Shown one piece after another: positions 14,401 through 54,063 of a DNA stretch of 64,000 nt (positions within the stretch are counted from its first letter, which is position 1; each line of letters begins with the position of its first letter). The notes below the pieces were generated by a model. That model was not told the DNA's origin, made no database searches, and saw only the letters and a program-made list of their open reading frames with translations. The DNA comes from Cenococcum geophilum (Eukaryota): contig CP158635.1 of the NCBI GenBank assembly GCA_050273025.1, positions 20,336,001 to 20,400,000 on the forward strand. The letters are read 5' to 3'. The position numbers and the translations under genes are program-made.

Positions 14401-16326
14401 TACTATTTACAGATAGACGGTTAAATAGAAAGATTAAATTAGATACTAAAGTAGTATCTAAAATATTATATTAATTATATATAGAATAATTGGGTATTAT
14501 TATTACTAGTTATATAGTTTATATATAATACAACACTATAAAAAGGGATAGGCATATTACTATTTAAGGCAAATTATAGGTATAAGCTAAGAATATCGTT
14601 GTTACTATAGTAAGTGAAGAAAATAAGTAGTATAGCTAAAGAAAGAATAAAGATACTAATAAATCTTTATATAGACCTTATAGAATTAATAAAGAAAGTA
14701 TAAGAGAGAATAAAAAGGTATTATAATGCTAAGAGATTTAAGGGACTAGATCTTAAGGAGGGAGATAAAGTATAGCTACTATATAAAATTTTTAAAAGCT
14801 AACAACTAAGTAAGAAGTTAGACTACGTTAGACTAAGACCTTTTAAAATTATATAGAGGATTTTACCAGTTACGTTTAAGTTAAACCTATTAACTAAAAT
14901 AAAAATCTACCCTATATAGTATATCGTAATACTAGAGCCAGTATATAGGAATATTAAGCTACTAGTTTATAAAGCAGATATATATAGAGGACAAGAAGAG
15001 GATAAATAGCAAGTTTTAAAGATTATTAGCTATAAGAACGTCGATAATAAAATATAGTATAAGGTAAAGTGGATAGGCTATAATAAGACTATCTAGGAGC
15101 TACTAGAGAACCTAAAGAACGCTATAGAAAAGGTATAGGAGTATTAGAAGAAATTAGGTTAAGCAGTATTAATAAAAAAGGATTACTAAAAAATAAGTTA
15201 CCTAAGGGGGATCTAAGAAGAGCAGTTACTAAACTACTTAGATCTATTTCCTTCTCGGCTAAAAGAGAATCTATTCTTTTATTATTAAGTTCCTATAGAC
15301 CCTATTCTATAAGTTTCTACTTCTTAAAATAAACCTTCTTATAACCCTTCTTAAGACGGATTAACTAAGTAGACGCCGTAAGATAAGACTTAAGAGCTCG
15401 TTACTAAGTATTAGTAGCCTCCCGTTCTATATTATAAGAACGGCGTAACTTAGCTAAAGTAATAGATAATTTATTATCTAGCCGCGTAGTAGTAAATTAA
15501 ATATAAAACTCTAAAATAAATTAATTAGGGAACTAGACGACTATTAAGAGTAATAGGCTGCGTATATTTAGTATTAGAGATAGAGCGAACGTTATAAGAT
15601 AAATAAATATTCGCTTTAGTGCATTCTAAGTAAAAGGACGGTTATTGCGAAAATGGACTCGTTAATGTAATATAGACTAACCCCTCTTTTAAACAGCAAG
15701 AATATAGAGACGGTATAATCTTACTAAGAGACAATATCGCAGTAATAGTGCGGATGCGACAAGCAGTTAAGGAAAAAGAAATTATTTTAGGTATAATAAG
15801 TAATAATATTAACCAAATTAATTAAACGGATATTATACCTTTAGTAAACGACTTAGAGATATTAGGAATCTTTAAGAATAAAGATAGAGAGGAGGGAGAT
15901 GGTGTTACGGACGCTTTAAGTATAATATTATAACTACTTAGAGAAGAGTTAGAAGAAGCTAGTTAGTTAATTTAAATATAATCTAGGATAGAGCTAATAG
16001 AACTATATAATAAGGAATAGTAGCTAAGGTTACGTAATGTAATCTATATAATTTATAGGATTTATATAATCTATAATAGAGTAGATAAAACATATATATA
16101 TTATATATAAGAAGGATTTTATAGGAATACGGTTATATATTTAAGGACCCTTAATCCCTACCTAGATAATTCCTTCCTTATAGTAATTCTTAGAATATAA
16201 TTAAAGTTAATCTGTTAGGCAACTACTCTACTAGTTATTATTACATTGTTAACTTTAATTTGCATTACCTATATACCTAGCCCAATAATAAGCCTATTGT
16301 AGTACTTACTACAAGGTTTCGTTACA
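11500..16326 (+). mobile_element. Ty3/Gypsy copy C (family 1), 3' part: end of gag, pol, 3' region and 3' LTR (15903-16326)
   Basis: Collinear with about 37020-41844. ORF 12771-13028 is an RT fragment. PPT GAGAGGAGGGAGATGG precedes TGTTACGG...GTTACA. Confidence 0.93.
15190..15794 (-). pseudogene. Antisense six-cysteine accessory ORF of Gypsy copy C (RIP-degraded; 3' end approximate)
   Basis: Homologous to 40730-41311; Cys positions read TGY or the RIP product TAY. Confidence 0.55.
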
Positions 16327-22459: not shown

Positions 22460-23064
22460 AGCTAAAGATAAAGGGATTAGTTAAAGGTAATAGACGAGCC
22501 AGATTATCTAAGGGATCTACTACTAGTATATAAACTATTTCCGCCTCTTTTTAAACAGAATCCTTTTTAGCCTTCTTAGCCTTAAGTTTAGATAGACCTT
22601 AATCTATTAAGTAAAGCTCTTTTAAGTATACCTTTTTATAGACCTTTATTAAACGGCTTAGGCAAGTATAAATATCTAGTTAAGCTTTTAGAGCCTAAGA
22701 CGCCTTATTAGAACAACGCTAAACCTTAGCAAGGGCCTCGGCTAGCTTACTCTCTAGTTTTTTAGCCGCTACTAATACGCGCAACCCTAAAGGAGATTAG
22801 ATAAGGAACTAGATAATTATAAAGAATAATAAGACGTATATATTTAGCATTAAAGATAGATTAAATATTATATAATAACCATATATTCGCTCACGTATAT
22901 TTAGCATAGAAAGAAGGTTAATAACTAGATAGAGCTATAATCGCAATATATACTAACTTCTTCTCTATATAACGAGAATAGAATAGTATAACTTTACTAA
23001 GGGAAAGAATAAACGTTACTAGCTAGTTATAATAATTAAACGTAAAAGATCTAATAGGGGGTAT
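22460..23064 (-). pseudogene. Antisense six-cysteine accessory ORF of Gypsy copy D (RIP-degraded; 3' end approximate)
   Basis: De-RIP reading MPPIRSS..ILSLGEVMPSCSRC.EKKLVC..IAAPSGRQPSSCAECTRANMRSSCDVRS. Confidence 0.55.
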
Positions 23065-23596
23065 TAGGAATAATAAAGGTTATTAAATTAAAGATAGGAA
23101 TGCCATACCTCTAATAGACAACTTAGAGATAGGAGATATCTTTAAGGACGAAGATAAAGAGGAGGGGGATAGTATTACGGACCTTATATTAGCAGTAGTA
23201 TAACTACTAAGGATAGATATAAATAGGTTAGTTAAGATAGTATAGGAGGCGCTAAAACCGATTAAGCTATAGAATAAAGGGTAGCTAAGTTATATAACTA
23301 GTTACGTTATAAGTTTAGAATATAGGAACGCGACGTACCGATGTACTAATATACCGATATACTAAACCCTTTACTATAGGGAGGAGTTATATATTTAAGG
23401 ACACACAGTCTTTATAGATAGTTTCTCTTCTTTATAGTAAATCTTAGAATATAATTAGAGTTAATCTATTAGGTAACCACTTCACCAGTTATATTTACGT
23501 TGTTAACTATTCTATACCTATATACCCAGCCCATTAACAAGTCTACCGTAGTATTTTCTATAAGGCTTCGTTATACCTAATACGTTCCTAAAGGTA

Positions 23597-26500: not shown

Positions 26501-27759
26501 AGTTATAAGAATATAGACGATAAAATATAGTATAAAGTTAAGTAGATAGGCTATAATAAGACTATTTAAAAACTATTATAGAACCTAAAGAACGCTATAG
26601 GAAAGGTATAAGAGTATTAAAAGAAAATAGGTTAGGTAATATTAAGAAGAAGCTAAAAATAAAGGGATTAGTTAAAGGTAACAGATGAGCTAGATTATTT
26701 AGGGGATCTACTACTAGCGTATAAGTTGTTTCCGCCTCTTCTTAATTAGAATCCTTTTTAGCCTTTTTAGCCTTAAGATCGGCTAAACCTTATTCGGTAA
26801 GACGTAACTCCTTTAAGCATACTTTTTTATAAACTTTTATTAGATGGCTTAGGCGGGTATAAGTATTTAGTTAAGCCATTAGGGCCTAAAACGCCTTATT
26901 AAAACGGCGTTAAACTTTAAAAAGGGCCTTGGCTAGCTTACCCTTTAGTTTTTTAGCCGCTACTAATATATAAAACCCTAAAGTAAATTAAATAAGGAAC
27001 TAAATAGTTATAAAGAATAATAAGACGCGTATACTTAACGTTAGAGATAGATTAAACGTTATAGGATAACCATATATTCGCTTACGTATATTTAGTATAG
27101 GAAGAAGGTTAGCAATTAGATAGAGCTATAATTGTAATATATACTAAAAATAGGATAGTATAACTTTACTAAGTAAGGGAATTATAGTTACTAGCTAGTT
27201 ATAATAATTAGATATAGAGTATTTAATAGGAGGTATTAGGAATAATGAAATTTATTAAATTAAAGATAGGAATACTATACCTTTAATAAATAACTTAGAG
27301 ATAGAAGATATCTTTAAGGACGAAGATAGAGAGGAGGGGGGTGGTGTTACGGACCTTATATTAACAGTAGTAGCACTACTAAGAAGAGATATATATAGGT
27401 TAGTTAAGATAGTACGGGAGGCGCTAGAATTAATTAAGCTATAAAATAAGGGGTAGTTAAGTTATATAGCTAGTTATGTTATAAGTTTGGAACGTAGGAA
27501 TATAGGAATATATAAACGCGATATACTAACATACTAACGTACTTAGTACATTTCTTAGGCGTAGTATTATATATTTAAAAGGACTACAGTCCCTACCGTA
27601 GATAATTCTCTTCTTTATAGTAAATCTTAGAATATAATTAGAGTTAATCTATTAGGCAACCTACTCTACTAGTTATATTTATTTGTTAACTTAACCTATA
27701 CCTATATACCTAGCCCATTAACAAGTCTACCGTAGTATTTCCTATAATGCTTTGTTATA
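23597..27759 (+). mobile_element. Ty3/Gypsy copy E (family 1, subfamily b), protease to 3' LTR (27345-27759), with small internal deletions
   Basis: Collinear with the other pol copies; 3' region and LTR are closest to copy D; PPT GAGAGGAGGGGGG is present. Confidence 0.9.
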
Positions 27760-29808: not shown

Positions 29809-32748
29809 CTACAATCTACTCTCAAAACCACCAGCGCCCCATCTCCTCTCTCCTGGCCAACTCGCCTCAGGCCACACACACCTCAGCGCGTCCCAGATGT
29901 GGGCAACATGCACAATCTGCAATCCCTCGAGCACTTCAATGGGTATATCCCTAATATCCTTCCTATTTCCCTCTGGCAATAACACCTTCTCCACCCCAGC
30001 CCTCAACGCCCCAATGAGTTTCTCCTTGATCCCACCAACCGGCAAGACTCTCCCCCTCAGGCTCACCTCACCAGTCATAGCCAAAGTTGGCGGGACCGGC
30101 TTTCCGCTGAACAGTGAGATAAGGGCAATAGTATGCGCCAGCCCAGCGCTAGGTCCGTCTTTGGGGATTGCGCCGCTTGGGCAATGCACATGGATACTGC
30201 GATTCTTCATGATATCTTCCTCTAGCGAGTGCGTTAATGCCAGTTCGTATGCATGAGCTTTCACCCATGTCAAGGCAACCTCTACACTCTCTTTCAGCAC
30301 ATCGCCCAGCTTTCCAGTCAGCTGTACGCGACCTGACCCAGGCATATCGGCGACTTCGATGAAGAGGATGCTACCTTGCCCACCAGTGCTGTAAGCGACC
30401 AGGCCAGTAACAACGCCGGGTCGTGAGTGCTGCTCCGCGAGTTCCTCACTGAAGCGCTCAATCCCGAGGATGGTATCGAGATCGGCTAGAGATACGACCG
30501 GGTTATATGCGGTTAGTGAATTTGTGTCCTTTGCGGAAGCATATTCAACGGCTTTAGAGCGGCAGACGGAGCCTATCTCGCGCTCGAGGTTGCGCACGCC
30601 AGACTCACGGGTGTAAGCAGCTATGATCTTGTCTAGAACCTCCGGAGTGAATTGCACAAGGTCAGAGGCAAGGCCATTAGTAGTGATTTGCTTGGGGAGC
30701 AGATGTCGGGTTGCAATGTGGCGTTTTTCGAGAGTAGTGTATCCGGATAGCTGGATCATCTCCATACGGTCAAGGAGAGGAGGCGGAATTGTATCAAGAG
30801 AGTTAGCGGTGGCGATGAAAAGTACTTTGCTTAAATCAACGGGAATATTGACATAATGATCGGTGAATGTGTGATTCTGCTCCGGATCTAACACTTCCAA
30901 CATCGCAGCGCTCGGATCGCCGTGGAAGTTGCTCATGCCTAGCTTATCAATTTCATCGAGCAGGAAGACTGGGTTTGCGACGCCAACCTTTTTCAGCCCA
31001 TTAACAATGAGTCCAGGCATCGCAGCTACGTACGTTCGTCGATGTCCGCGGATTTCAGCCTCGTCTCGTACACCACCGAGAGAGATGCGGTGGAATTTGC
31101 GTCCAAGTGCAGCGGCCACAGACTTAGCGAGACTTGTTTTGCCTGTTCCCGGAGGACCTACGAGGAGGAGAATAGGGGATTTGTCAACCATACGCTTCTT
31201 CTCTAGTAGTCTTAATTCTGCTTCCCCCGGCTCTTTTGAGGTGGGTTTCTCTGCTTCATCTTCCTTTTTCTCATTTTTAGCACCAGTAGCAGCAGCGGTC
31301 AACTGCTTAATTTGCAAATCGAGGTCAGCATTCGCCGCATGTTTCAATTTTAGGACCGCCAGATATTCCAGTAATCTTTTTTTGATCTTTTCCAGCCCAT
31401 AATGATCATCATCAAGCTGTTTCTTTGCCCGTGCCAAAGTGGCAGCATCGAGACGATCCTCCGTCGTCTTACTCCACGGAATCTCTGCTAGATTTTCTAG
31501 ATAATTTCGGCAAACCTGATACTCCGCCTGCGCCGGATTCATCTTCTGGAGTCTCTGTAATTCTCTTTGCGCCACTTTATCTGCCTCGGGTGACAGTTTC
31601 GCCTCCTCCAACCTCTTTTTTAATTCGTCCAGCTCATTGACTTCTTCACCGCCCTGATTTCCTCCAGGGAAGCCCAGGAAACCTGGAGGTATACCACCGG
31701 GGAGTCCATTCGTGCCTCTCCTAAGCAGTGCCTCTTGTTGCAATTTCCTTAGACGGTCTATATCAAATGTTCCGCTTGGTGAAGTGCTTGATGATACTGT
31801 GATCCTCGTGCTTCCCTGGATCCCTTGGATCTGCCTCTGCAACACCTCAATTACTCGTTCCAATCTATCCTTTACATCTAACGCAGCCAGTATTCTCAAT
31901 TTCTCCTCGTGTGTGCAGTCAACAACATTCGCCATGAAGTCTGCCAAAGAACCTGCTTCTCCAATGTTCTTGCGCGCGATATAGAGTTCTAGCCTACGTG
32001 CGACGATGGGGGATAGTGAGACGGATGGGCTGCGGGGAAGGATGGAGGAGAGGCGAACTAGTGCAAGGAGCTCGCGAGAAAGCTGCTTTAAATGCTGGAA
32101 GAGTTCTGCAACCTCCGTATTCGAGGCATTGACTACTTTCCAACCGTTAGCTTATCATAGCCAATGCCCATTCAAATTCTCCGTTACTATAGTTTTATCC
32201 CATTATGCATTCTATCATCCTCCCATATTCCTCGAATGCTCGGGCAGATATTATAGAAGGGATCACATACCTTGATCTTCGACCACCTCAATCATCCCCT
32301 CAAAATACGGTTTCTCCTGCAGTATCTTCTCAATCCTAAACCTGCCCAGCCCCTCTACTACCAACGCTAGTTCGCCCTGCCGCCGTCCCTGCACCCCAGA
32401 CACCTTTGCCACACACCCAAACCCAAAGAGATCTTTATTCTTCGCGACGACTGGATCACTCTCATAAACTGCCTTTCCCTTGGTTCTCGCATCCCCATCT
32501 CCTTCATCCAACAGCAGTTTCCCATTTTTGCTGACCAGAGTCGAGTTTAGCGGCACGCAACCGACCGTGATGGTGGCATCTGGTTTTGCGGTCGTAGCGC
32601 GTGAGTAGATCTTGGCGAGGACGGCGGTGACATCGGCACGGTTGGTGATGGGAACACGAAGTGTGACTCCTGGGAGAAGCACAGAGGGACTGGTAAGAGG
32701 GAGGATAGGCAAGACCTTGGGTTCGGCTTTCGAGGGGGACTTGCCCAT
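29809..32748 (-). CDS. LON2: Peroxisomal Lon protease (Lon protease homolog 2), 933 aa; exons 32748-32271 and 32132-29809
   Basis: LON N-domain start (LPILPL..VLLPG), Walker [10 protein letters not shown], Walker B FLLDEIDK, catalytic PKDGPSAG and GGIKEK, PTS1 SRL. The 138-nt intron GTATGT..GCTAAC..TAG joins the two ORFs in frame. Confidence 0.96.
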
Positions 32749-33351
32749 GGTGAATTTGGGGTTCCACGGTCCAGACGCCCGACAGCTAGGAGTGTATATA
32801 GAGACAAATACAGAGGTGGAGGAATGGATACGGGTAAAAGCCGATTGACGGATACAAAGTCTGGTAGGATGAAGCGCTTAATCTGTTGATATATCTGGAA
32901 GGGATACGGAGAGCGGAAGTATCGCAATCTAGTGTATTGCATCGTCATCGCCGAGGTAATACGGCCCCTGTCTCGTGATTGGGCTTGAGCACGGAATGAT
33001 ATGGAGCAGGAAGGAGAAGCTTTTCCATGTTAAACTACATTAAACGACCGCGACATCTCTCACTAGTCTAGCAAAGGCAGACCAGGTTTAGCTCTGTGAA
33101 TCATTTATATTTCATAAGCTACAACATCAAGAATTCCTCCTACCAAATTCCTGGAGCCGTAATTCCGCTTCTCAATAAATCAACATCTCCACAAGCCTAG
33201 TGTACCCTCAGCCTCTAAATACTAACTACCCCTAAAAGCTCTATCACTATATTATCTACTAAGCTGCTACGTACCTAAAATTACAAGGCAGTATCTATTT
33301 TATAGTTCTATCTACTAGTTGTACAAAATAAGACTTTTTTTAGTAGTTATC

Positions 33352-33638
33352 GCGAACGTCCACAAAGAAAGCTGTCCGTGCAGAACACCAGGATCAGAAC
33401 AACGCGCATAGGCTGATCAAACCATGCCTTCTAATTGTACTTCCAGTGATATAGACCTTGTTCAGCCGACTCAATATAACGTTCAACCAAATCGTGTCTC
33501 AAAAAAGCCTCCCCCGGAGCCTTGGCCGTTGCTCGATTTCGAACCTCTCTACATTAGTTGTATATTCCTGAGCATGGCATTGATTTAATTGGTAAATCCT
33601 TGTCGATAACGTGTGGACGAATTTTGGCGGGTTAAGGG
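33352..33638 (+). mobile_element. Internally deleted relative of the piggyBac-like element; left TIR not recognisable
   Basis: Similar to 18055-18285 (ACACCAGGA.., AATATAACGTTC.ACCAAAT) fused to a 3' end like 21105-21162; ends GGGTTAAGGG followed by AT. Confidence 0.75.
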
Positions 33639-33890
33639 ATAGAAGCGTTTTTAAAAACAAGTATATGCGTACAGGTGGCTCGCTTATTTTCACAGCACTT
33701 TCGAAAAAGGTAGTAAAGGGGTAGAGTCGGATATTCTTACTTTCGTACGAGTAGGCCCGGTATAACAAAGCCCCGTAGGAAATACTACAGTGGACGTATT
33801 AATAGGTTAGGTATATAGATAAATATAAAACAATAAGCTTAAACTAGTAAAGTAAGTATTTAATAAATTAATTATAATTATATTTTAAGA

Positions 33891-34315
33891 TGTTACGGAC
33901 GCTTTAAGTACAATGTTACGACTACTTGGAGAAGAGACGGAAGAAGCTAGTTGGTTAATTCAGGCACGGTCTAGGATAGAGCCGGTAGAACCATATGACG
34001 AGAAATAGTAGCCGAGGTTACATAATATGCTACGTATTAAACGCAAGGAACGAGAGGAACTCACGTACCTTATATATAAGACGTATATTATATATAAGAA
34101 GGATTTTATAGGAGTACGGTTGTATATTTAAGGACCCTTAGTCCCTACCTAGATAGTTCCTTCCTTATAGTAATTCTTAGAATATAATTAGAGTTAATCT
34201 ATTAGGCAACTACTCCACTAGTTATTATTACGTTGTTAACTTTTATACTTATATTTTCTATATACCTAGCCTAATAACGAGCCTACTGTAGTTCCTGCTA
34301 TAAGGTTCTGTTATA
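33891..34315 (+). repeat. 5' LTR of copy F
   Basis: Direct repeat of 41420-41844, differing mainly by transitions. Confidence 0.95.
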
Positions 34316-37300
34316 CAATTACTACCTAGTTACGGTATTAATATAAGAAGTTAAATAATATGCTACTAAAAGTAGCTACTACAACGCCATTAACGGCAGC
34401 AACTATATTGAGGTTAGGTAATAACACCAGTATAGTAGACACTAACTCACAGCAACCTATAATGGTTGGACAGTTATAAGAGATAGTTAACTAGTTAACA
34501 GAAAATAATGTAATGTTGGAAAATAGGATTAACGGGATAGGCGTAGTAAAGGTTAAGTTACCATCAATTAAAAGGTACTTAGGAGAGAGATTAAAGCTTA
34601 AAGGATTTCTAACGTAAATATACTTTAAGGTAGTACAGGAAGGAGTAAAGCTAGTAATACCTATAGATTAAATAGCATATATAGGATTGTTCTTAATAGG
34701 AAAAGCACTTAAATAGTTTAAGCCTTACCTAATAGAAATCTAGGCAAATGGAATAACAACTATAAATTAAGAGGTACGGTTTATATTCTTAAGCTAGAAT
34801 GGATTCGTTAAGCGACTTATATAAATATTTGGAGACCTAGAGGCAGTAACTATAGTAGAAAGAAAACTCTAAAATATTACGCAATGAACTTTAGTAATTA
34901 AGTATATAATATAGTTTTAGACGCTAGTAATATAAGTTAAGTGGAATAATAGGGCGCTTATAGCACAGTATAAATAGGGACTTAAGGCTAAAGTCTAGGA
35001 CGTAATTATTCTAATGGAAGATGTAGATACCCTAAGGGAATTAATAAATTAGGTAATTAAGATTAATAATTGGATCTACTAAAGGGAATAGGCTAAGAAA
35101 GGTTAGAATAGAGTTCTATAGTTGTATAAGGCGTAGAGTACGCAACGATAGAAGCTAAGTTAAAAACTATAGTATAGCGCAGAGCTAATAGACCTAAGTG
35201 GTATTAAAGAAGCCTATAAGAGATAGAGTAAATAACCGTAGAAACCTAGAGGATAAGGATTAAGTAATTAAAGGTCTAAGAAGCAGAGGCCAAATTAGGG
35301 ATCTTAACAGCAGAAGATATTTAGGCGGACTCTATAGCAAGAAAAATGGTTTAAAAAAGGAGCTTATATAAATTGCAGAAAATAAAGTTATTACGTTAAA
35401 GACTATAAAAGTGGGTAGAGTTACTATATAGTAAAAGGTATAAGACTAGTAGATAATATATACGTATAGAGGGATAATAATATACTACGAGGAATAAAAG
35501 AATGTTTAATTAGAAGTTTTACATTTTGTTATAATAACGCATACTAAATTTATAAGGACGCTAAGTATGGCGTAAGCTATTGGCTATAGGAGCTAGCACC
35601 TATAGGATATAGAGGAACTAATAAACTAGTTCGTAGATTGGATATTAAGGATAATAAATTTAACGTAGGCGAAACATTTTATAACGATAAGGTAATAAGA
35701 GCGGTTTACTAGGAACACGTAGCCATTAAAGATATTATACTAAAGGTAGAGGATAATTCCACTATAGAATAGGGAATATTAGTAGGGATTAAAACCCTAC
35801 TAAATATGATGTCTATCGCTTCGCGAGATGTAAGAGAAGTAGGATAGCGAACTACTTTGGTACTTAATAAAGGCAAAAGGCCAAAGGCTTAAGATTCTTA
35901 TAGCAAGATAAGAGACGACTAAGATTCTTAAGACGAGATAAGGTAAGCTTAAGGACCTATAATAGACGAAAACCAATAGAGTAGAGTAGTAGCTTAGTTT
36001 AAGAATATACGAATAAGTTTAAGATAGAGATTCCTATAGGTATAAGATTCTTAAGACGAGATAAGTGAGATTTAAGACTCTTAAGACGAGATAAAAATAC
36101 TAAGTAAGCCTAGTTAGACTAAGGCTGGAGCTAAGCTTAAGTTAGAAGCAAGCTTAGGATTAAAGAATCTAAGGGATTAAGAATTTGGAGTATAAATTAG
36201 GACACCTATAAGTAAGAGGCAAGGAGCTTTTTTATAGATTAAAGAATCTGCGGCGCAAATAGTAATTAGACTAGGAGACGAATATATAGACCTAGAAGAT
36301 TTACTAGTAGAACACGTTGTTTAGACTAAAGGTTGAAAAGTTAATACCAAGATTAAGAAGCAAGAAGACTTTAAGGATTAAAGCGTAAGGCGTAAACCAA
36401 AGGAAACTATAGAAGAGTTTAGATAAAGAATTATCGCATAGCAAGAATAGAAACTAGATAAGAGATCTAGCATATTAGGACGTATAAAGGATAGAGCGCT
36501 AGTATAAAGAATTACTAATAGGCCGAGAGTAGGCACACTAAGAGCTAAGTGGCTTACTAAACTGGAAGATAAAGAGGATCTAGGGATTTTAACTAGGTTC
36601 GAAGAACGATATATAAAGGGCTATTACGACGTAGTAATAAGAAGATACTTCCTTATGGATAAGCCGTATATACTTTAGCAGCTGTATTAAAAGTGGTATA
36701 GGCAAAGGCATAACGATGAGTAGGAAGATTTCTATATATGGTTAGATAAGAAAGTTATCTAGAACTACCCAATTATAGAAAAGGCTATAACTTACATTAA
36801 AGGAGCCTTAATTATAATGTTAAAGGATCTAAAGGAGCGTTTAGAGGACTAGAGAAGTAAGAGACGTATCTTAATACCTATAAATAAAGTCGTAATGTTT
36901 AGATTAGCACGATAGAGGTTTAAACTTAAGGATAAAAATAAGTTAAGAGTTAACCTAAAGTACCTAGCACACTATACGTTATTATGGATTGCGTGCGTGG
37001 ATAATATATATAAAATATATAAGAATTTAAAGAAAAAGAATCGGAAATACCCTATAAGGATATACTAGATAATAGACGAGCGATAGTATAGAAATGCTAA
37101 ATATATGTATAAATAGCATCTAGCAGAGGTCTAAAAGGAAGGAAGTTTAGTACTTTAACCAGAAAGATTCCTTATGGAAGAATGCTTAGACGGATAATAG
37201 TAGTAGAAATGCCTAGAAAATATGTATTTATAGTATATTAAAGATAAAAAGCAAACTAGGCATTAGCTAAAGAATAAGCTAAGTGTAATAGGATTAAGCA

Positions 37301-40300
37301 GCTAACAGTTAGGAAAAGTAGAGGCCTATGGGACTAGAGGGAGCTAGTAGTAGAGCCTTAGACCCTTAAAGGAATTTAAGGACGGCACCTAAATTTATAA
37401 GTTAAATGGCAAGATTAACAGTTTAAGGCATTAATAGATAGTAGAGCAATAAGGAACTATATCTTGCTAGTAGTAGTTAAAAGGATAGGATTACCTTATA
37501 GACAAAAGGAGAAACCTTACCTATTAGTTATAATTTTAGGAGATCTAATAACCTACGGAGGAGGGATTATTAATCTTAAAATAGGACCTATTTAGATAAC
37601 TATTAAAGGAAGACAAATTGAGATGTCTTTTAATATCCTACTATTAGGACGGGATAAGGTAGTATTAGGGATGCCTTAGTTACAGGAATATAATTTAAAG
37701 ATTAATTAGATTATAGGTTAAGTTAATATTAAAGATACTTAACGCCATAAGATGTAATAATAAGCTAAGTTGGTATAGTACTAAGTGGGAGCAACCTATA
37801 AGGAAACAGAAAAAGGATTAAGTTATATATTAAAGAGATACCATAAGTATAGTAAGAAACTATAGTTACCGGAAAATAAAAAGCTATTAGAGTATATAGT
37901 ATAGAACTATAAGATAGAATTAAAACTAGAAATAAGTTTAAAGTTCTTTCCAATCTATAAGCTTACTAAAGAAGAAGGTAAAGCACTAAAAGAGTTTATC
38001 TAGGAAAATCTATAAAAGGGATATATTAGACCATCGCAGTTATTAGTAGGATATCCAGTACTATTCGTACTAAAGAAAAATAGTAAACTAAGGCTGTGTA
38101 TTAATTATAGATAGTTAAACAGCATTACTAGGAAGAATAAATATCCTTTACCCTTAATTAGCGAAATCTAAGATAGAATAGGCAATACGTAAATCTTTAC
38201 GAAGATAGATCTAAGATGGGCGTACTATTAGATTAGGATTAAGGAAGGCGATAAATAAAAGGCAGCCTTTAGGTTAAAGGAAGGACTGTATAAACCATTA
38301 GTTATGCAATTTGGGCTTATAAACGCACTAGCAACGTTTTAGAAGCGTATTAATAATATATTAGGAGAACACTTAGATAAATTTATTATAGTATATCTTA
38401 ATAATATTATTATCTACTTAATAATTAAGGAAGAATACGGGGAATACGTTAAATGGGTTTTAAAGAGACTATAAGAAGAATAGATGCTAGTAGTAATTAA
38501 AAAATGCGAGTTCTTTACTAGGAAAACCGATTTCGTTAGATTTATTATTAAACTAGGCCAACTTAGCATAGATCTAAAGAAGATTAAGGCTATAGTAAAT
38601 TGGCAAAAACTAAAGAATATTACGTAGTTAAGATTGTTCTTAGGGTTTTATAATTACTATAGGAGGTTTATAGCATAGTGGTTAAAGGATATTAAGCCAT
38701 TTACGCGATTAATAAAGAAAGAAGAACTATAGGTATAGGGAGAGGAATAGAAGGAACTCTTTAAAAAAGTTAAAGAGTTATTTACCTAGGAGCCAGTTCT
38801 TAAGATCTATTAACTAGGTCTAGAGACGGTTATAAAGATAGATGTATTAGACTATGCACTAGGGGTATACTTTATATAAAAACATTAAGATGGATAGCAC
38901 CTAGTGGCATATTATAGTTAAAAGATAACACTACTAGAGTTAAACTATAACATCTACAACAAGGAGTTATTAGGTATAGTTATAGCATTAAAGGAATAGA
39001 GAGTATTCTTATAAGGTACAGAAAAACTATTTATAGTTAAGATAGATTATAAGAACCTAACAGGATTCCTAATAATAAAGGAACTTAACTAAAGATAGGT
39101 TAGATAGGCAGAGATGCTTATAGAATACTATTTTAAGATTTAGCATACTAAGGGTATAGATAATACGCGGGTAGATACTTTAAGCCGTAAAGCTAAACTT
39201 TAGAACAACGAAAAGCTATTAGGGGCTTTACTGCGAAAAGACACAGACGGATTAATTAGGTATAATTATCTAAAAATTATAGCCACTTAAGAAGATAATA
39301 AGTTAAAGAAAGTCTATAAGACACTAGAAAGCTTTTGGGTATAAAGGATTCTAAAAGCATAACTAGAAGATCTATAAATAGATATATATAAAAATTGAGA
39401 AGTAAAGTATATCCTAAGAAGTATAGCAGAGCAGTTTATAGAAGACTTCTATAAGGGACTAACTTAAGGACATAATGGAGCTATAGGCTTAGTGTTAAGA
39501 CTCTAGGAGGAGTACATTATTAACGGAATCTAGAGAATAGCTAGAAAAGTCACTAAAGAGTGTCTAAATTGCTAAAGGAATAAACTAATAAGGTATAAGC
39601 TATATAGAGGGCTATAACCTATTAAAATACTAAAGAGACCATAGGAGGTTATATCGTGGGACTTTATTATTAAGTTATTAAAGTTAAGAGATCCTATTAC
39701 CGGATAAGATTATAACGCGATTTTAGTGATAGTAGATAAGCTTATAAAGTGGGGATACTTTATAGTATATATAGAAGAAATCTTAGCGGAAGATATTACT
39801 AGAATCTATATTAAAGAAGTATTTATAAGATATAGAGTACTAAGTAAAATTATATTGGATAGAGATCTAAGATTCGTAGCAGTATTTTAGGAGGTATTCT
39901 TAGCGGAGTAAGGAGTTTAAGCAGCAACTTCTACCGCATATTATCCGCAGATAGATAGTTAAACGGAAAGACTAAATTAGATACTAGAGCAGTATCTAAG
40001 GCATTATATTAATTATATATAGAATAATTAGGTATTACTATTACTAGTTATATAGTTTGCATATAATATAACACCTTAAGAAGGAATAGGCATATTACTA
40101 TTTAAGGCGAATTATGGATATAAGCTAAGGATATTATTATTACTACGGCAAGTAAAGAAAACGAGTAGTATAGCTAAAGAAAGAATAAAGACGTTAATAA
40201 ATCTTTATATAGACCTTATAAAATTAGTAAAGAAAGTATAAGAGAGAATAAAAAAGTACTATAATGCTAAGAGATCTAAGGGACTAGATCTTAAGGAGGG

Positions 40301-40729
40301 AGATAAAGTATGGCTATTATACAAAAATTTTAAGAGTCAACGACTAAGTAAGAAGTTAGACTACGTTAGACTAGGACCTTTTAAAATTATATAGAGGATT
40401 TCACCGGTTATGTTTAAGTTGAACCTACCAGCCAAAATAAAGATCTACCCTATATAGTATATCGCAATACTAAAGCTAGTATATAGGAATATTAAGCTAC
40501 TAGTTTATAAAGTAGATATGTATAGAGGACAGGAAGAAGACAAATAGTAAGTTTTAAAGATTATTAGTTATAAGGATATTAACGATAAAATATAGTATAA
40601 GGTTAAGTGGATAGGCTATAACGAGACTACCTAGGAGCTACTAGAAAATTTAAAGAATGCTATAGGAAAGATATAGGAGTATTAGAAGAAATTAGGTTAG
40701 GTAGTATTAATAAAAAAGGATTGCTAAAG

Positions 40730-41311
40730 AATGAGTTACCTAAGGGGGACCTAAGAAGAGCAGTTACCGAGCTATTTAGATCTATTTCCTTCTCTATTAA
40801 AAGAGAATCCATTTTTTTATTACTAAGTTCCTATAAACCTTATTTTATAAGTTTCTACTCCTTAGAACGAACCTTTTTATAAACCTTCTTAAGACAAAGT
40901 AGATAAGTAGACGCCGCGATTTAAGTATCTAAGGCCTTCTGTTCCGCATTATAAGAACGTTCTAACTTAGTAAGGGCTTAAGACAGCTTACTATCTAGCC
41001 GCGTAGTAGCAGATTAAATATAAAACCCTAAGACAAATTAATTAGGGAACTAGATAACTATTAAGAGTTATAGGTCGCGTATATTTAGTATTAGAGGTAG
41101 AGCAAACGTCGCAGGACAAATAAATATTTGCTTTAGTGCACTCTAAATAAGAGGATGGTTATCGTGAAGATAGACTTACTAACGTAATATAGACTAATCC
41201 CTCTTTTAAACAGCGAGAATACGGAGACGGTATAATCTTACTAAGAGATAATATTGCAGCCACAGTGCGAGCACGACGTTGGGCGTATAAAGAAGAAATT
41301 GCTTTAGGTAT
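40730..41311 (-). pseudogene. Antisense six-cysteine accessory ORF of Gypsy copy F (RIP-degraded, probable intron; 3' end approximate)
   Basis: De-RIP reading MPKAISS..RRARTVAAILSLGEIMPSPCSRCSKEGLVC..ASPSSRQPSSCSECTKANIRSSCDVRS. Three Cys codons are intact and three read TAT. Confidence 0.6.
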
Positions 41312-41419
41312 AATAAGCAAAGATATTAACTAAATTAATTAAACGGATATTACACCTCTAGTAAACAACTTGGAGATATTTTAAATCTTTAAGAACGAAG
41401 ATAAAAAGGAGGGAGATAG

Positions 41420-41844
41420 TGTTATAGACGCTTTAAGTATAATATTATAACTACTTAGAGAAGAGACGGAAAAAGCTAGTTAGTTAATTTAGGTACGGTC
41501 TAGGATAGAGCCGGTAGAACTATATAACGAGGAATAGTAGCCAAGGTTATATAATGTGCTATATATTAAACATAAGGAATAAGAGAAACTTATATACCTT
41601 ATATATAAGATATATATTATATATAAGAAAGATTTTATAGAAGTACAGTTGTATATTTAAGGACCCTTAGTCCCTACCTAGATAGTTCCTTCCTTATAGT
41701 AATTCTTAGAATATAATTAGAGTTAATCTGTTAGGTAACCACTCCACCAGTTATTATTACGTTGTTAACTTTTATACTTATATTTCCTATACACCTAGCC
41801 TAATAATAAGCCTACCGTAGTTCCTACTACAAGGTTCCATTATA
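41420..41844 (+). repeat. 3' LTR of copy F
   Basis: Follows the PPT AAAAGGAGGGAGATAG and is followed by the TAAGA TSD. Confidence 0.95.
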
Positions 41845-42161
41845 TAAGATTTACTATAAAGAGAGAACTATCTAAGTAGAGACTATAGTTCTTTAAATAT
41901 ATAACATACTCTTAAGAAATACCTTTATATAATATATGTGTTATATATATTATACGTAACGTATCTTATATATACTATATATAATATATATAATATTACC
42001 TAACTTTTATAACCTTGCTTACTACTTATTATATAATTTAACCAGTTTATTATAGTCTATATTATATTTTATAGCTTATCTAGTTTAGTAATAAGTATTT
42101 ATAATACTTCTAGTACTAGGTTTATAATACTGCCCCTCTTCTACCTCTATCCTTAGGGGTA

Positions 42162-47720: not shown

Positions 47721-48292
47721 TTACTAGGTTATTAATCGTCCCAGCTCGGGTCACATCAACTGATAGCTTGCTATCGAAGCAACCAGCGTGTGGCCCGGAA
47801 GGAAAACCGAAATTATTGATTGAGTGTATTTGGAGTGGTCTCAACCCCTGGCGAGCTGAGCGACAGGAGACTAGTTCATTCTTATGCCCATCAGAGCTGC
47901 ATTGCCCAATTCTGTAAAATAGTGGAAATTGCTCTCGCACTAGATGGGGCAACAAACCCTGTTGCGAAGCCTCGTATGAAGGACAGCGACGAAGGTCTTG
48001 CAGAACAAATTATGTACTACTACATTACGAAACAGTAGGCCTTTGAGTCAATCATACCATACACCGGCACCATGCTTGCACTTACATACACTTGTACATG
48101 TAGAACCATACTGGATACAAAATTCAAGCTGTGAGTTCATATATAAAGGCTACAACAAGTATATCGGCCTTCAAGAAAACAGAAAATCCTAAAACAGCTA
48201 AGTAATATACATATCATTACGTGTAACCTAGGCCGAAAAATGGGGTGCATATAGGTGGCTCTTTCATCCACTCCGGTCCGAACCCCTGCCCC

Positions 48293-51200
48293 TCACCCCC
48301 TCACACTACTCCCACATGCTCCGCCACCAAGCTGACTACTCATCAAGCTGGCTCCAAGATTCGGCGCCGGGCTAGCCTCACGCACCGTGATACTCGGCGG
48401 TAGTCCAATTATAGGAATGCTGCTGTCTAGCATCGGCGTCGCGTGAGGGCTGGGACTAGCGCGTTGCAAAAACGCCTCTTCGTAGAATATTTTCAGGGCC
48501 GTGGCGTCGGAGCAGAAGGCTTCGATTTCGTCTTTGATCTGTTCGGGCATCTGTAACTGCACTTGCGCCGCTTTCTCCGCTGATACATGTAATATCGAGG
48601 CGTCTGGAACGGGGTGGGAGAGCGGTGATGAGAAGGGAGAACGGTGAGAGGGCGTGTGGCGCTCTGTGGGGCCAGGGGTGGGTGTCGTGCCTGTCCCTCC
48701 TCTCCGCTCGTAGGAGTCCGCGGGCTTGTATTTTAGTGCGTCGCGGGATGCGGCAGCGCGGTTGTTACAGAGACGATTGGCGAGGAGGAGGAATGCGCCT
48801 TCGTCTGTGATTTGTGCAAGGAGCACGCCCGATTTGTGGATGTATTGCGTGTACTGGTAGTCCGGTCTGCCCCAAGAATACGTGACGTCTGCATCAGACG
48901 GGAAAGATGAGGCGGCTTCCATATCGAGTACGAAATTGAGCTTGCGGAGCAGCGCCTTGTGGTAGACGAATTTGTCGGACTTGATTTGTGGTGCGAAATG
49001 TGCCGAGTCGAAGTACTGCTCCGGTTGGGTTTTTGGTGGTGGTACAGCGAGGCGAATAATATAGGGCGAGCGGAAAGGATGCGCGTTGCTGATATTCGAC
49101 GCTTCTGCAATAGGCACTTCCACGAGTTTGAGTCCATATTTTTCAACCGAGGTCGCCCAGGTGACGATGGCGTCTTCTATGAGTTTAGCTGTAACATTCA
49201 TCCAATCAATACGAATATGGTAGCAGTTATCTGGGTTATGAAGGCGGTCATAGTGCAAATTAATAATCTCAGGTCGGTAAGATCGTTTTCGAGAATCAAC
49301 ATCGTAGCGCATGACTCGACTAAGAGTGACTGTACGTTTTGGGCTCCCAGCTCGAGTGGGCGTCTTCTCCCCTTCGCCGGACGCGTTAGAAGAGGTGCTA
49401 GTGTTCGGACGAGATCGAGAACTTCGTGTCGTAAGAGGTGAGGTTCTTGGCGCATCGGACATTGGGGTTGACGGTACTGATTTGTCTAATCGACGAGTTC
49501 CGAACCAACTGGTTCTTGAGTCTGGACGCGGAGCACGATATTCAGTAGCAATCTGGTAAAAGAAATTGCCATCTCGAAATTGGTGCTTCCTCTGCACGTG
49601 CTGGAAAAGACCTTTTTTCATAAGCTGATTTCCAAGGTCTACTGCTTCGTCTCTGGTCTCAATATTCTTAAAATTCTGAAGCAACCAACTGGTCAAATCA
49701 AATCCAAGGAAACAGTTGTAATGCAATCTCCAATGCCATCTTCGATCCAACATTTGTATGCCTTTCTCTCCTTGGAGATCCTCAGCGAGCTTCTTCATGT
49801 CGATGCTGGAGGTGTGATACTGTTCTGTTTCGGCGAAAAGCTGAGAAGAAAAATTGTTAGGATCTCCATCCGCGAGTAGTGCGCTGTCAGGGCCTGCTGC
49901 AACAATTGCAGAGGGATCCCTTGTTTGGTACTCGATTGCTAAGGGGTTTGGGTCTTTTCGCTTCCGAGCAGATTCTTGAAAATGACGTTCTTCCGGAGGA
50001 ATATAGCGATACCGCTGCCATATCTGGGTCAATTTTCGGATACCCTCCAGTCGAATTTCTTCTTCAGAATCTTCAGTGAGAAGAGGAAGTGGACGGCGAG
50101 TAACGCTTGGTAATTCGACTGGAATTAGCACAAAACGAGCGCGCCAAAAACGGAGGATATCCGAGAATTCATCGTCGTACCCAGCCAGAAATGAGTCGAT
50201 GAAATTCCAATTGTACTCTTTCCTTGGTGGCTTCAGAACGATATCGCGAGGATGATATTCATGCTCAAGGGCTGTACGAATGAGGGGTTTGTAAAACAAA
50301 GGCGAGTCTACGCCCGCGGAAGTTTCTAAAGCTGTAGTGGGCTTCCGATTGTATCGTTTTACTTCAACTTCGCCTCCAGCTACGCAAACGAGTTGATGTA
50401 TGGTGTTTCCGACCGACATAAAAACCATGTCGCCGTCGTTCGACATATAGTTCAAGTCAAAGATACTCTCAATATCGCGTTCCCTACTTCCCGTAAATTC
50501 CGCCACTGCAGTCCCGACAACAATCTGGAAGCCATGGGACAACCGGAATGCAATGAGTTCTCTAATCAAGGACTCACGAGATTTGGGAACATCAGTAGTG
50601 TCATCGTCCTCGTTCTGAGTAATCTTGTATGGGCTCTCGTGGTATTCAGTAACAAGTTGCTCTGCTGTTGGGAAATACTCATTTGTCAAGGGTACCGCAG
50701 CCGGTGAACATAGTGACTTCCACTTTATAGCTGACGCACGAAGGGGCTTTGGGAAAACATGCTGCCACCTGCGAAATTGGTTTGCAATACTCATGTTGTT
50801 CTTTTTGGGGTTGCATGGATTGACTAGTACTAGCCAAGGGGAGAGTGCACTAGTCGGTGACAACGTTCGTGGAATCTCCTGGGCGCCGCCACTGGATGAT
50901 AGATCTGGCTTTCGTCCAACTTGCTCTAGAAGCTCCCGGGAGCCTGCGAGAAGAAATAGTGAGCCAGGATCCTTGGATTCTAAACTTGGCTGGATTGTTT
51001 CCGATTTTCTTGGGCCAGGGACGTTTTTCATGGTGATCACAGATTTAGGAACGTTTTCGGGGACTGGAGAATGTGCGGAAGCTACACTAACACGCGATGC
51101 AGCCCTTATGGCAATAGGTTGTGAGGGCTTCTCAGTGTCGTGACTCCTGGTGCTCGCTAATTTTGCTGCAATAACACCTTTCTGGTTATTTTCAACTGTC

Positions 51201-54063
51201 AATCTGGCGGGCTCCACACTGCCGGAAGACACTGTAGCACTAGCAGTTGACTTAGAAGCTCCAAAGCCTAAGCCGCCGAAGCTAATTTGCCTTGATAGCC
51301 ACCTGGAAGGTCTCAAAGGAGGGTTGGTGTCGGAGACCGCACTACTAGTGCTGTGTGTCTCGGGAAGTGTGTCTTGAAAACGAGGTGACGTCGGGTGTTT
51401 TGTTATCACCTTCAATGAGGCAGAGTCTCCACGTGTGCCGTGTACGTCTTCTTTGAACGAAGTTGTGGTTACGCCTACTATACCCCGCTGATCTCCTAGG
51501 CTAGCTCGTGGATGAAAGACTGGTCGTCCCGGGGGATCTACTACTCTAACCGAAGAGGTCAGCCTGCGCTGTGGTGCCTCTGATAATCTGAAGCTTGAAT
51601 CACGAGACAAACTCTCGTGTGTTGTGTCAGCCTCGACTTCATTCGAGCGCTCTCTCATAAGTTGGTGAAAATTTGTATTAGGCGGAGGTCGAGCAGAATT
51701 GCCCAGAGAATGTGTGGGACTGCTGAAAGAAGCAGACAACAGTGAGCCTTGTGGCACTTGATGATAATTGGGAGCATCCTGGGCCAGCTCCCTTTTCTGC
51801 GATGCCTTACGATGCCTTTCTTCTACAGCTTTTTTATCAGCTAAAGGCCGGAATATGTGATCATCATAAGTTTTCATCCATGTGGATTGGAGGAAGCGAC
51901 CATGTCTGATATTATCTTCAGGTCGGGTTCGATCAGATGTAGTGATTTTCGTGGGAGATTTTGGGGCAGGAAACAACACTGGACGAACCATTAAACCCTG
52001 AGCAGTTTCGATTAAATCCTCATAATATCCTCGTAAGCCGTGGGGATACAAAGGGTTTTCTTGCATGTAGGGAATCGATATGTTGCTCAGCTCGTTTTCC
52101 ATAACGCCCATCATCTGAAGTTCGTACATTCTACACCTTAAAGCAAATCGTCTGTCTTTTTCATGTGGCTTTAAAAGCGATTTCCTGGTGCTACGGTGTC
52201 GAGACAGTTCTATTGTCTCACCCGATGGTCCAGACCAGAATGAAATGTCAAGCCAATGAGGCATTGCATAGCTCCATTCACCAGGGACCATATTGTCTAA
52301 GTTACCCATCAACGGACTTGGCGTACGTATTGCACTCCGTTTCGCAGGTGAGTACCCTATTAGTAGGCTAAAGTTTGGCTGGCTTTGCCTCGGCGTTTTT
52401 TCATCATGCTCGTCATATGAGCGTCCGTTTAGAGGACTCGTTGTTTCGATCCGACCAATAGCTTTTGCTACTGTGCTAGAATATAGGCGAGGATTCCGGT
52501 ACTTGAAAAGTGGTACAGAATGCAGCGGCATAGGTGATAAGCATACAAGATCGATACCGATACCAGTGCCGATGAGAGTGTCTGTGGTCAGCTTGAGCAT
52601 GTTATAGTCGACCTCATAGACACCAGTTCCTGCTGTTATAACAATAACAGATATGCCTGTGCGAACCAGGTCCCTATCGATATAATCCTTAGCAAACTGG
52701 GCGGACGCAAGGTTAATAGCCTCCAATACGTTTCCATTAGCTGCCATTGATGGCGTCCCAGCAATGATGAACTTTGATTGGGGGTCTTCGTTGGCATTTA
52801 TTTGACCGTTAGCTCCTTCATTCGCGTTCGTTTGTTGTGGTGTGAGTGAAACATCCCGAAGAAACGCACGAAATTCCTTCTTGAGTTGATAGAGGATATT
52901 GATCCAATCTCCGCTTGCCATTTCGCTTACTACTACGCGATAGAAGTCTCTAAACGGTCGGCCCTGGTTGCCCTTCTCATTGAAATGCGGGTGTTCGTCC
53001 GCAAGATTTTTCGTGGGTAAGGGATTTCCCACATATTCGAGCCTTGTGAAAAGGATTATGGTGACAAGATGCCGCGCATTGATCCTCATCCAGCGTTTGA
53101 ATAGTTCGGGAAGGAATCCATTTACGACCTTGTTAAACATGATCTCTCCAGCACCCTCCGTATCAAAGTCCCACATCTCCTTAGACATTTGGATAAACAA
53201 AATGTACCGTGCCGATTCGCTGCGAAATATAGGTTTTGTCATAGATGAGAAATAGCCTGAATGCATCGTCTGCCCATTGATGTATACATTTTTAACTGTT
53301 GCTTTGATCGTGCCCATGAAAAGCAATTTTTGGCCTTTGTAAACAGTTTTGTGACTTAGTTCAGAGACTGCCATTCGCCACATATCTGCTCTTGCGAGGT
53401 ATTCGTCTCGAAATGCTAGCTCAACATGGGATGCTGAATGAGTTTCTTCATCAGCCTGTGCGGGGAGATGTTAGCAGAACACAGGCAGCATAAAAAAAAG
53501 ATAGACAAATTAACATACTGTTGTTACTATTATCTGCATTCTATTACGGAATCCAAACACTTTTGCAATTGTTTCGGAAATGGAGACCTACGGCTATTAG
53601 TGAATACTAGGTGGTAGTAGAATAACGTGTGACGTACTTGTAAGTTAGGATGCTTAGCTTTCTGTTCTGGACTCATCGGCTTGGTGACAAACACATAAGA
53701 CTTCTGTGGGTCCACATCACGGCTGCCTTGTATAGCTACTCCATTCTCATCTAGGGTGATTGTAACTGAGCGTCTGCGAGCTTTCTTCGGTTGCGTTTCC
53801 GGGACAGGGTCTCTCTGTACCTCATCAACTTTTGATTGCCTTGGATCTACCGGGGAGGTCTTTAGAGCTGTCTGAAAGTCCCGGACTGCCGTTGTTTGCT
53901 TGAGCGCAAGGATCCGCGCTAAGGATCCAGAAGCAATGGGAAGCTCAACAAACTTATCAATATTGAAGACGACCTCGTCCCTCGAAAAGTTTTCGTCATG
54001 AGTCCAAAGAGCGCAGATTTTTTGCACCCTTGTGGGTCTGATATTGGCGGCGGATTTCGACAT
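48293..54063 (-). CDS. IML1: Vacuolar membrane-associated protein Iml1 (SEACIT/GATOR1 subunit, DEPDC5 orthologue), about 1885 aa; exons 54063-53638, 53587-53519, 53455-48293
   Basis: Motifs FRSESARYILFIQMSKEMWDFD, GIDLVCLSPMPLHSVPLFKY, WKSLCSPAAVPLT, DEP domain DRRWHWRLHYNCFLG, C-terminal YDRLHNPDNCYH. Introns of 50 and 63 nt have GT..CTAAY..AG and keep phase 0. Confidence 0.95.

Follow-up and report, generated by a model that had tools for sequence, protein, structure and literature searches.

The window analyzed here, a stretch of 64 kb of DNA, consists of AT-rich blocks with a G+C content of 26-38% that alternate with short blocks of about 50% G+C. The AT-rich blocks contain several copies of one Gypsy family, lying on the + strand. 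The best-preserved copy, E4, has a 5' LTR at 33891-34324 and a 3' LTR at 41420-41856. Its + strand, with X read at stops, encodes reverse transcriptase, RNase H, an integrase zinc domain and SH3_Tf2-1, all upstream of a chromodomain-like end to pol that scores below the Pfam Chromo cutoff of 25.1 bits. Some 690 nt lie between the pol stop and the polypurine tract and 3' LTR, and this interval contains a further gene, on the minus strand. The RIPped repeats are separated at 30001-34000 and 48001-54000 by blocks with a G+C content of 45-51%, in which host genes probably reside.

Table 1. Positions within the window of the antisense gene and of the element features that flank it.
Feature	Position	Strand	Remarks
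Pol end, chromodomain-like stretch and stop TAA (40725-40727)	40551..40727	+	Pfam Chromo E 0.0049, 17.2 bits
Antisense gene in E4 (subfamily A)	40730..41311	-	RIPped copy, frame from 41311
Exon 1, E4	41083..41311	-	start position 41311-41309 (ATA here); basic N-terminus, then six-Cys module
Six-Cys module C-x2-C-x6-C-x13-C-x2-C-x8-C	41111..41221	-	reads Y,C,Y,Y,C,C in RIPped E4
Antisense intron, 55 nt	41028..41082	-	starts ATA here, ends CTTAG; branch-like CTAAT
Exon 2, E4	40840..41027	-	stop 40842-40840 (TAA here); encodes long helix/coiled coil
Continuation of exon 2 frame to stop 40662-40660	40660..40839	-	last ~22 codons overlap pol end on the other strand
Polypurine tract adjoining 3' LTR	41391..41419 (approx.)	+	purine run
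3' LTR of E4	41420..41856	+	89% identity to 5' LTR over 437 nt
Antisense gene in E1 (subfamily B)	15190..15794	-	RIP pseudogene; profile match 15525-15935, E 1.3e-34
Antisense gene in E2 (subfamily C)	22460..23064	-	RIP pseudogene; profile match 22756-23184, E 6.7e-38
Antisense gene in E3 (subfamily C)	26660..27236	-	25-nt deletion in exon 1 breaks frame; two profile pieces, two frames

The antisense gene is found in four copies of the element, and a profile of the family matches the window at exactly these four and nowhere else. All four are dead RIP pseudogenes. The small deletion that the initial annotation placed in the E3 copy removes 25 nt from exon 1, with loss of the reading frame.

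A six-frame scan of the window with the pattern [CY]x2[CY]x6[CY]x13[CY]x2[CY]x8[CY] gave four matches. Three of these are the undeleted copies of the gene (41111-41221, 22870-22980 and 15594-15704). The remaining match, on the minus strand at 60252-60362, contains three internal stops and has no similarity to the family profile, and we take it as chance. In 100 block shuffles of the window the pattern occurred 0.04 times on average and never more than once, against four in the window itself. The minus-strand frame with six spaced positions that had been described from 41311 to 40730 and in the other copies is confirmed. The three undeleted copies have Cys at three, two and none of the six positions, with Tyr at the remainder.

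One metagenome scan returned 608 pattern matches, of which 505 encode a relative. The best 80 loci were used; seven with matches shorter than 700 nt were excluded, and the 73 that were kept provided 74 copies to be aligned with the four from the window. All 78 aligned copies are RIPped, with 28-38% G+C. They include three subfamilies, with A comprising 51 copies including E4, B comprising 21 including the 15190 copy, and C the 22460 and 26660 copies. In transversions A and B are 0.03 apart, and C is at a distance of 0.16 from each of them.

From Cys1 to Cys6 the number of copies with TGY is 14, 46, 4, 13, 53 and 28 out of 78. TAY makes up nearly all of the remainder, the exceptions being one gap and one TGG, and no copy of the 78 has CAY at any of the six positions. 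RIP converts TpG to TpA, and makes only transitions. The occurrence of TGY and TAY and never CAY thus shows that the codons were ancestrally Cys at all six positions, with Cys3 the weakest case. The most Cys kept by any single copy is four of the six. The internal stop of exon 1 is CAA in 27 of the 78 copies, indicating that it was formerly Gln, and the exon 1 frame of 89 codons is free of stops in seven of 72 ungapped locus copies. The initial annotation had read the Cys positions as TGY or its RIP product TAY, and the larger alignment bears this out; ancestral Tyr codons, the outcome it had named as contrary to its reading, are not what the 78 copies point to. The conserved blocks that it quoted are de-RIPped readings, and they agree with the computed de-RIP consensus.

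The Cys frame meets a TAA in 74 of the 78 copies, and the helical tail is encoded in a different frame. The two are separated by a 55-nt segment, recognized initially as intron-like, which is present in all four window copies. Once it is removed, three of them have a single frame of about 199 codons, broken only by TAA or TAG. The last letter of exon 1 is the T of a Trp codon divided T-GG (phase 1), and the start codon position of the exon is ATG in nine of the 78 copies. The related proteins P0156, P0174 and P0204 run without interruption through the junction ...AEW-SRV(Q/V)..., and cutting out 41082-41028 (55 nt, 1 mod 3) from E4 reproduces this junction. P0087 is likewise intron-less and un-RIPped, with its reading frames joined as by removal of 41082-41028.

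The same junction can be seen in assembled minus-strand contigs (694 nt in data sets X19 and X20, and 718 nt in X22) that cover about 41387 to 40660. These have a joint from 41018 to 41083 with nine replaced letters, a net loss of 55 nt, and the nine letters are a less RIPped form of 41019-41027. X19 is a metatranscriptome on record; for X20 and X22 the assignment to RNA is a guess, and X19 may be the same data set as X20. A run of raw RNA reads, X21, aligned only 18 reads, of which 16 are less than 90% alike; all 18 have the first mate on the + strand, and they are too few to show strand or level. No DNA copy lacking the 55-nt segment was found among the 78. The 3' AG is retained in 65 of the 78 copies, with CTAAT 16 nt upstream. 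The G of a 5' GT (41082) is seen in just one copy; in the others there is an A following T, which is the context of RIP, and we infer a 5' GT before RIP. The junction in intron-less homologs, the joint in RNA-type contigs and the presence of the segment in all four window copies together support a real antisense intron. A 57-nt GTATGC...AG intron was rejected, as it gives the wrong frame and agrees neither with the RNA joint nor with the junction in homologs. Later acceptor sites were rejected too, since they run into stops in the de-RIP consensus.

The end of exon 2 coincides with the end of P0156, which terminates ...KEWKLVE at the same place as the stop 40842-40840. In the 78-copy alignment this codon is TAA in 40 copies, TAG in 36 and CAA in one. 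P0174, P0170 and P0204 have Gln there and extend to a conserved ...TPVPF. Thus 40660..40839 is coding in relatives, as an acidic, hydrophobic tail, and is probably untranslated in the lineage of E4. A further TAA, four codons past the splice, is found in subfamilies A and B (75 of 78 copies), at a position that is Gln in P0156 and Leu in subfamily C. Another stop, for which RIP alone does not account, occurs in subfamily A. It follows that subfamilies A and B spread without need of the tail in cis.

We have estimated dN/dS (omega) between the subfamily consensuses from transversions only, because RIP makes only transitions. For exon 1 in frame omega is 0.28 (A versus C) and 0.25 (B versus C). 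Synonymous transversions are 19 of 37 and 20 of 37 respectively against an expectation of 23% (p = 1.3e-4 and 3.7e-5). For exon 2 omega is 0.54 for A versus C (p = 0.056) and 0.30 for B versus C (p = 1.2e-4), the latter with 21 of 42 transversions synonymous. The antisense reading frame has the lowest omega of all six frames for both exons in both comparisons. Past the stop 40842-40840 omega rises to 1.2-1.6 between subfamilies, which fits the termination of P0156 at that point. These values show purifying selection on exons 1 and 2 of the antisense gene between subfamilies. The initial annotation had proposed a selected accessory gene, and had named a consensus without an open frame, or a dN/dS near 1, as contrary to it. 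The antisense frame of the de-RIP consensus is open and omega lies at 0.25-0.54, and together with the Cys codons, the intron and the 225 clusters of relatives described below these results uphold the proposal. The role that it also suggested, as a transcriptional regulator or an anti-silencing factor, stays a proposal.

On the + strand opposite exon 1, the de-RIP consensus has the pol frame open as well, for about 98 codons (41003-41300), and this frame has its third codon positions in common with the antisense gene. This sense frame lies past the pol stop, with three further stops ahead of it and without an early Met, and its omega of 0.54-0.64 is not significant (p = 0.07 and 0.16). We therefore reject sense-strand coding over exon 1; the frame is probably open as a side effect of antisense coding sequence that is rich in G+C. 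Between subfamilies there are three transversions in the 54 sites of the intron, compared with 37 in the roughly 220 sites of the surrounding exons. The intron may thus be subject to a further constraint, from splice signals or from a cis element of the sense RNA.

Among 1.84 billion representative proteins, a profile built from 38 RIPped peptides (A3) matched 225 clusters at E<=0.001, 128 of these at E<=1e-10. Most of the 225 clusters are short open reading frames from DNA that is equally RIPped. The exact spacing with either Cys or Tyr is present in 143 of the 204 family proteins collected, and ten of those have all six Cys. Further relatives came from word-based searches that used un-RIPped members, namely P0156 (152 aa), P0087, P0174 (239 aa, with an open N-terminus), P0204, P0170 and P0173. 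All six come from short contigs of about 1-2 kb from 'jgi' or 'ena' sources, and are named at most 'hypothetical protein'. The nearest cluster in the ESM Atlas is of 204 aa with 77 members, most commonly from Ascomycota (score 0.90, with 200 of 256 features), and is auto-named 'Zn(2)-C6 fungal-type domain-containing protein'. No name but 'hypothetical protein' came from a part-only search of the Atlas, apart from DUF3716, which was present in 28% of one cluster with a score of 0.77. Two of the metagenome loci contain a second element arranged tail to tail (L042:1192-1617 and L073:1069-1488, minus strand), one copy being like subfamily C (84% to the 22460 copy) and the other more diverged (75%). 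The metagenome sample therefore has the same set of subfamilies as the window. We conclude that the gene is real and widely distributed, with its position, orientation and intron kept in all the subfamilies seen.

The initial annotation described a charged, helix-like tail, and structure prediction agrees with this. AlphaFold2 models P0156 with one helix at residues 77-151 with pLDDT of 94-98. With a cleaner alignment the model also has a short helix beginning at each of the two CxxC pairs (35-40 and 59-69), with pLDDT of 54-73. Across the AlphaFold2 models the pLDDT of the Cys module is 47-73. Two chains were modeled with four zinc ions, and the homodimer scored 0.51 compared with 0.00 for the best control. 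At least 83% of contacts agree between runs and the partner pLDDT is at least 79. In a calibration performed without zinc, 21 of 30 proteins solved as pairs of one chain attained the same mark, as did none of 23 solved as single chains. The predicted contacts are antiparallel, with residue 94 contacting 133-137 and residue 136 contacting 90-97. The model supports, but does not prove, the pairing of two chains through the long helix.

The six Cys had been likened initially to a Zn2Cys6 cluster with spacing that deviates from the GAL4 consensus. The Gal4-type spacing is C-x2-C-x6-C-x5-12-C-x2-C-x6-8-C. The deviation is genuine, with the loop of 13 being one residue too long for the range of 5-12; the other spacings fit. 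Many members have Gly before Cys3, where a basic residue would be expected. When 27 members were searched against Pfam, Zn_clus (PF00172) was the commonest weak match, reaching E<=10 in seven with a best E of 0.009. P0156 scored 13.6 bits (E 0.075) against a gathering cutoff of 21 bits. The six-Cys members P0056 and P0094 gave no Zn_clus match in the Pfam search, DUF3716 was a weak match in two of the 27, and no Pfam family rose above its cutoff in any member searched. The RIPped window peptides matched nothing in Pfam at E<=10. Profile searches of the PDB returned no Zn2Cys6 entry; profile A3 gave only MCM22 (E 0.81) and profile A4 no matches. Searching the PDB with the single sequence of P0156 brought up PPR1 at E 0.56, with Cys1-3 of the family aligned to Cys4-6 of PPR1. 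The first AlphaFold2 model had no matches in the PDB using Foldseek, and a wide search with VIA-align using the second gave matches to the long helix only (residues 72-152, Z up to 7.5). With Zn_clus below cutoff, PPR1 at that E value and the module predicted at pLDDT 54-73, the identification as a true Zn2Cys6 domain is not established. We refer to the module as Zn2Cys6-like, and do not assign it to the Zn2Cys6 family.

The gene and the LTR vary together, and pol does not vary with them. Comparing E4 with E2 over pol (39500-40699) there are 18 transversions in 1200 sites, and comparing E4 with E3 (37550-40699) about 140 in 3040 sites. In the first 750 nt past the pol stop there are about 130 transversions, or around 18%, between E4 and subfamily C, and the LTRs of subfamily C are 69% identical to those of subfamily A. 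Aligning 37550-41856 with 23538-27768 and 21044-23575 we observe 1.5-4.6% transversions in pol and about 18% in the gene and LTR, with the break at the pol stop. Synonymous divergence differs more than 10-fold across this point. It follows that recombination has swapped the gene-plus-LTR end, a 3' module of gene, polypurine tract and LTR that travels as one unit. In the U3 region of the de-RIP consensus of 43 copies (around 41555-41625) we find AACGGGGGG repeated in tandem, with some five TACGTA palindromes on its flanks and a TATTTAAGG box downstream. The window has TATATA at the TACGTA sites (41560, 41591, 41600, 41611 and 41618). Observed without a statistical control, the repeat and palindromes are only a candidate place for the binding of a factor.

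The explanation that we favor as a whole, and think rather probable, is that E4 carries an old accessory gene, inactivated by RIP, which belongs to ascomycete Gypsy elements of the chromodomain type and encodes a regulator of the element itself. The gene consists of two exons and a 55-nt intron, and lies antisense, after the pol stop and ahead of the polypurine tract. Being antisense to the genomic RNA, the intron survives retrotransposition. The intact protein of about 150-200 residues has a basic N-terminus, the six-Cys module and a helix of about 75 residues predicted to pair two chains, to which many relatives add the acidic, hydrophobic tail. An antisense transcript initiated at or near the 3' LTR would be spliced and translated, and the resulting zinc-binding dimer would bind nucleic acid, most likely the DNA of the element's own LTR, and so tune transcription of the element. 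The components of this scheme differ in how firmly we hold them. It is likely that the six-Cys module binds zinc. DNA binding with transcriptional regulation is plausible, at somewhat less than an even expectation, and the LTR as the target is a more tentative suggestion. In its most general form, the proposal would be that a large clade of ascomycete Gypsy elements has its own antisense Zn2Cys6-like dimeric transcription factor, spliced, made from the 3' end in the manner of HBZ, and inherited and exchanged together with the LTR on which it acts. We regard this as possible, though less likely than not. If true, such retrotransposons would have a private activator or repressor circuit, and would not depend on host factors only.

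The gene could also be real and selected with a module that is not of the Gal4 type, being some other zinc or disulfide module such as a pair of CxxC...CxxC knuckles. Its protein would then contact protein or RNA, for example in particle assembly, integration targeting or the suppression of host silencing. Every test of sequence and fold for Zn2Cys6 fell below threshold, the predicted coiled coil is antiparallel, and DUF3716 appears both in the part-only Atlas search and as a weak Pfam match, all of which agree with such a module. Against it, the spacing is just one loop residue from the Gal4 pattern, Zn_clus is the weak Pfam match that recurs most often, the nearest Atlas cluster bears a Zn(2)-C6 name, and a cluster followed by a helix and an acidic tail is the layout of small fungal activators. 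We think a module of another type possible, if doubtful.

A passenger origin, in which a fragment of a host gene was captured once behind pol and is of no service to the element, could account for the spread of subfamilies A and B despite the stop four codons into exon 2, and for the exchange of the 3' module by recombination. It is hard to reconcile with purifying selection on both exons between subfamilies, with 225 diverged clusters of fixed Cys spacing, or with the retention of intron, position and orientation in all subfamilies seen, and we consider it very improbable. It might be argued instead that there is no gene, and that a sense-strand or cis-acting RNA or DNA constraint combines with the Tyr-rich bias of RIPped DNA. 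The open sense frame opposite exon 1, with its shared third positions, and an intron less diverged than its exons could be taken that way. That sense frame is the one preceded by stops and lacking an early Met, and its omega of 0.54-0.64 compares with 0.25-0.28 for the antisense frame. Intron-less homologs exist, the splice joint is present in RNA-type contigs, and shuffled windows match the pattern only 0.04 times each. The absence of a gene is already contradicted by the joint, the homologs and the omega values, and is scarcely credible. The observation, the gene and the selection are real, and the reading as a zinc-cluster regulator is a reasonable proposal.

LTR retrotransposons are usually pictured as gag-pol machines steered by host factors. 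The present results point to a third gene under selection across hundreds of diverged fungal families, with its own intron and, by prediction, the build of a small dimeric metal-binding regulator. It offers a handle on the ways in which fungal elements control their own expression or escape silencing, and parallels the antisense genes of retroviruses. In ascomycete genomes, hundreds of 'hypothetical proteins' and some 'Zn(2)-C6 domain proteins' probably belong to transposons. Where the genome is RIPped, the remains of such genes stay readable if Tyr is taken as former Cys. Our search of the literature, outside which the original brtn paper lies, found nothing that links Zn2Cys6 to a Gypsy gene and nothing on a self-encoded antisense transcription factor of ascomycete Gypsy elements. 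The term 'antisense' is absent from a survey of fungal LTR elements.

Among known proteins, the Gal4-type Zn2Cys6 regulators (PF00172; PPR1, PDB 1pyi) share the six Cys in two C-x2-C-x6/8-C halves, a restriction to fungi and a helix after the cluster that pairs chains, here by prediction, in addition to the weak, recurrent matches to Zn_clus and the weak match to PPR1. They differ in the loop, which is 13 here compared with a maximum of 12, in the basic residue before Cys3 that is often missing here, and in scores that remain below cutoff. Moreover the predicted coil is antiparallel whereas that of Gal4 is parallel, and the protein is tiny, without a middle homology region.

In plants, LTR retrotransposons such as RIRE2, Grande, Retand and PvRetro13 have antisense open reading frames (PMC7264820, PMC4408406). 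According to the passages seen, these resemble the fungal gene in their position between pol and the 3' LTR, their orientation, their conservation within families and a function that is unassigned, and some have coiled coil. They belong to another kingdom with no homology shown, and in these passages have PMD or transposase-28 domains or none, with no mention of a six-Cys module. HBZ of HTLV-1 is a regulator encoded on the antisense strand, with a transcript from the 3' LTR (PMC10186651, PMC3185765). The likeness is of an antisense regulator-like protein of a retroelement, with a dimerizing coiled coil beside a region that contacts DNA. There is no homology, HBZ being a bZIP protein from a retrovirus of vertebrates, and for the fungal gene a start in the 3' LTR and an effect on the LTR are only proposed.

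The layout at E4, with a minus-strand gene between the pol stop at 40725-40727 and the polypurine tract at 41391 and LTR at 41420, and a Chromo-like end to pol, is that of brtn. This gene was reportedly described by Zhao et al. in 2011 (in Virology 417:248) in Boty-like Gypsy elements of Botrytis cinerea and Sclerotinia. No match in our protein searches bears the name 'BRTN', and the comparison is one of position, orientation and element type, not of protein sequences. In the literature that cites it, brtn is an antisense gene located from pol to the 3' LTR in Boty-like Gypsy elements of Botrytis and Sclerotinia (PMC8365987, PMC7264820, PMC4227169, PMC5987419), and a Monilinia transcript, T6826, is similar to BRTN (PMC5987419). 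Each is thus an additional gene, antisense and located from pol to the 3' LTR, in an ascomycete Gypsy element that bears a chromodomain, and brtn is transcribed in relatives.
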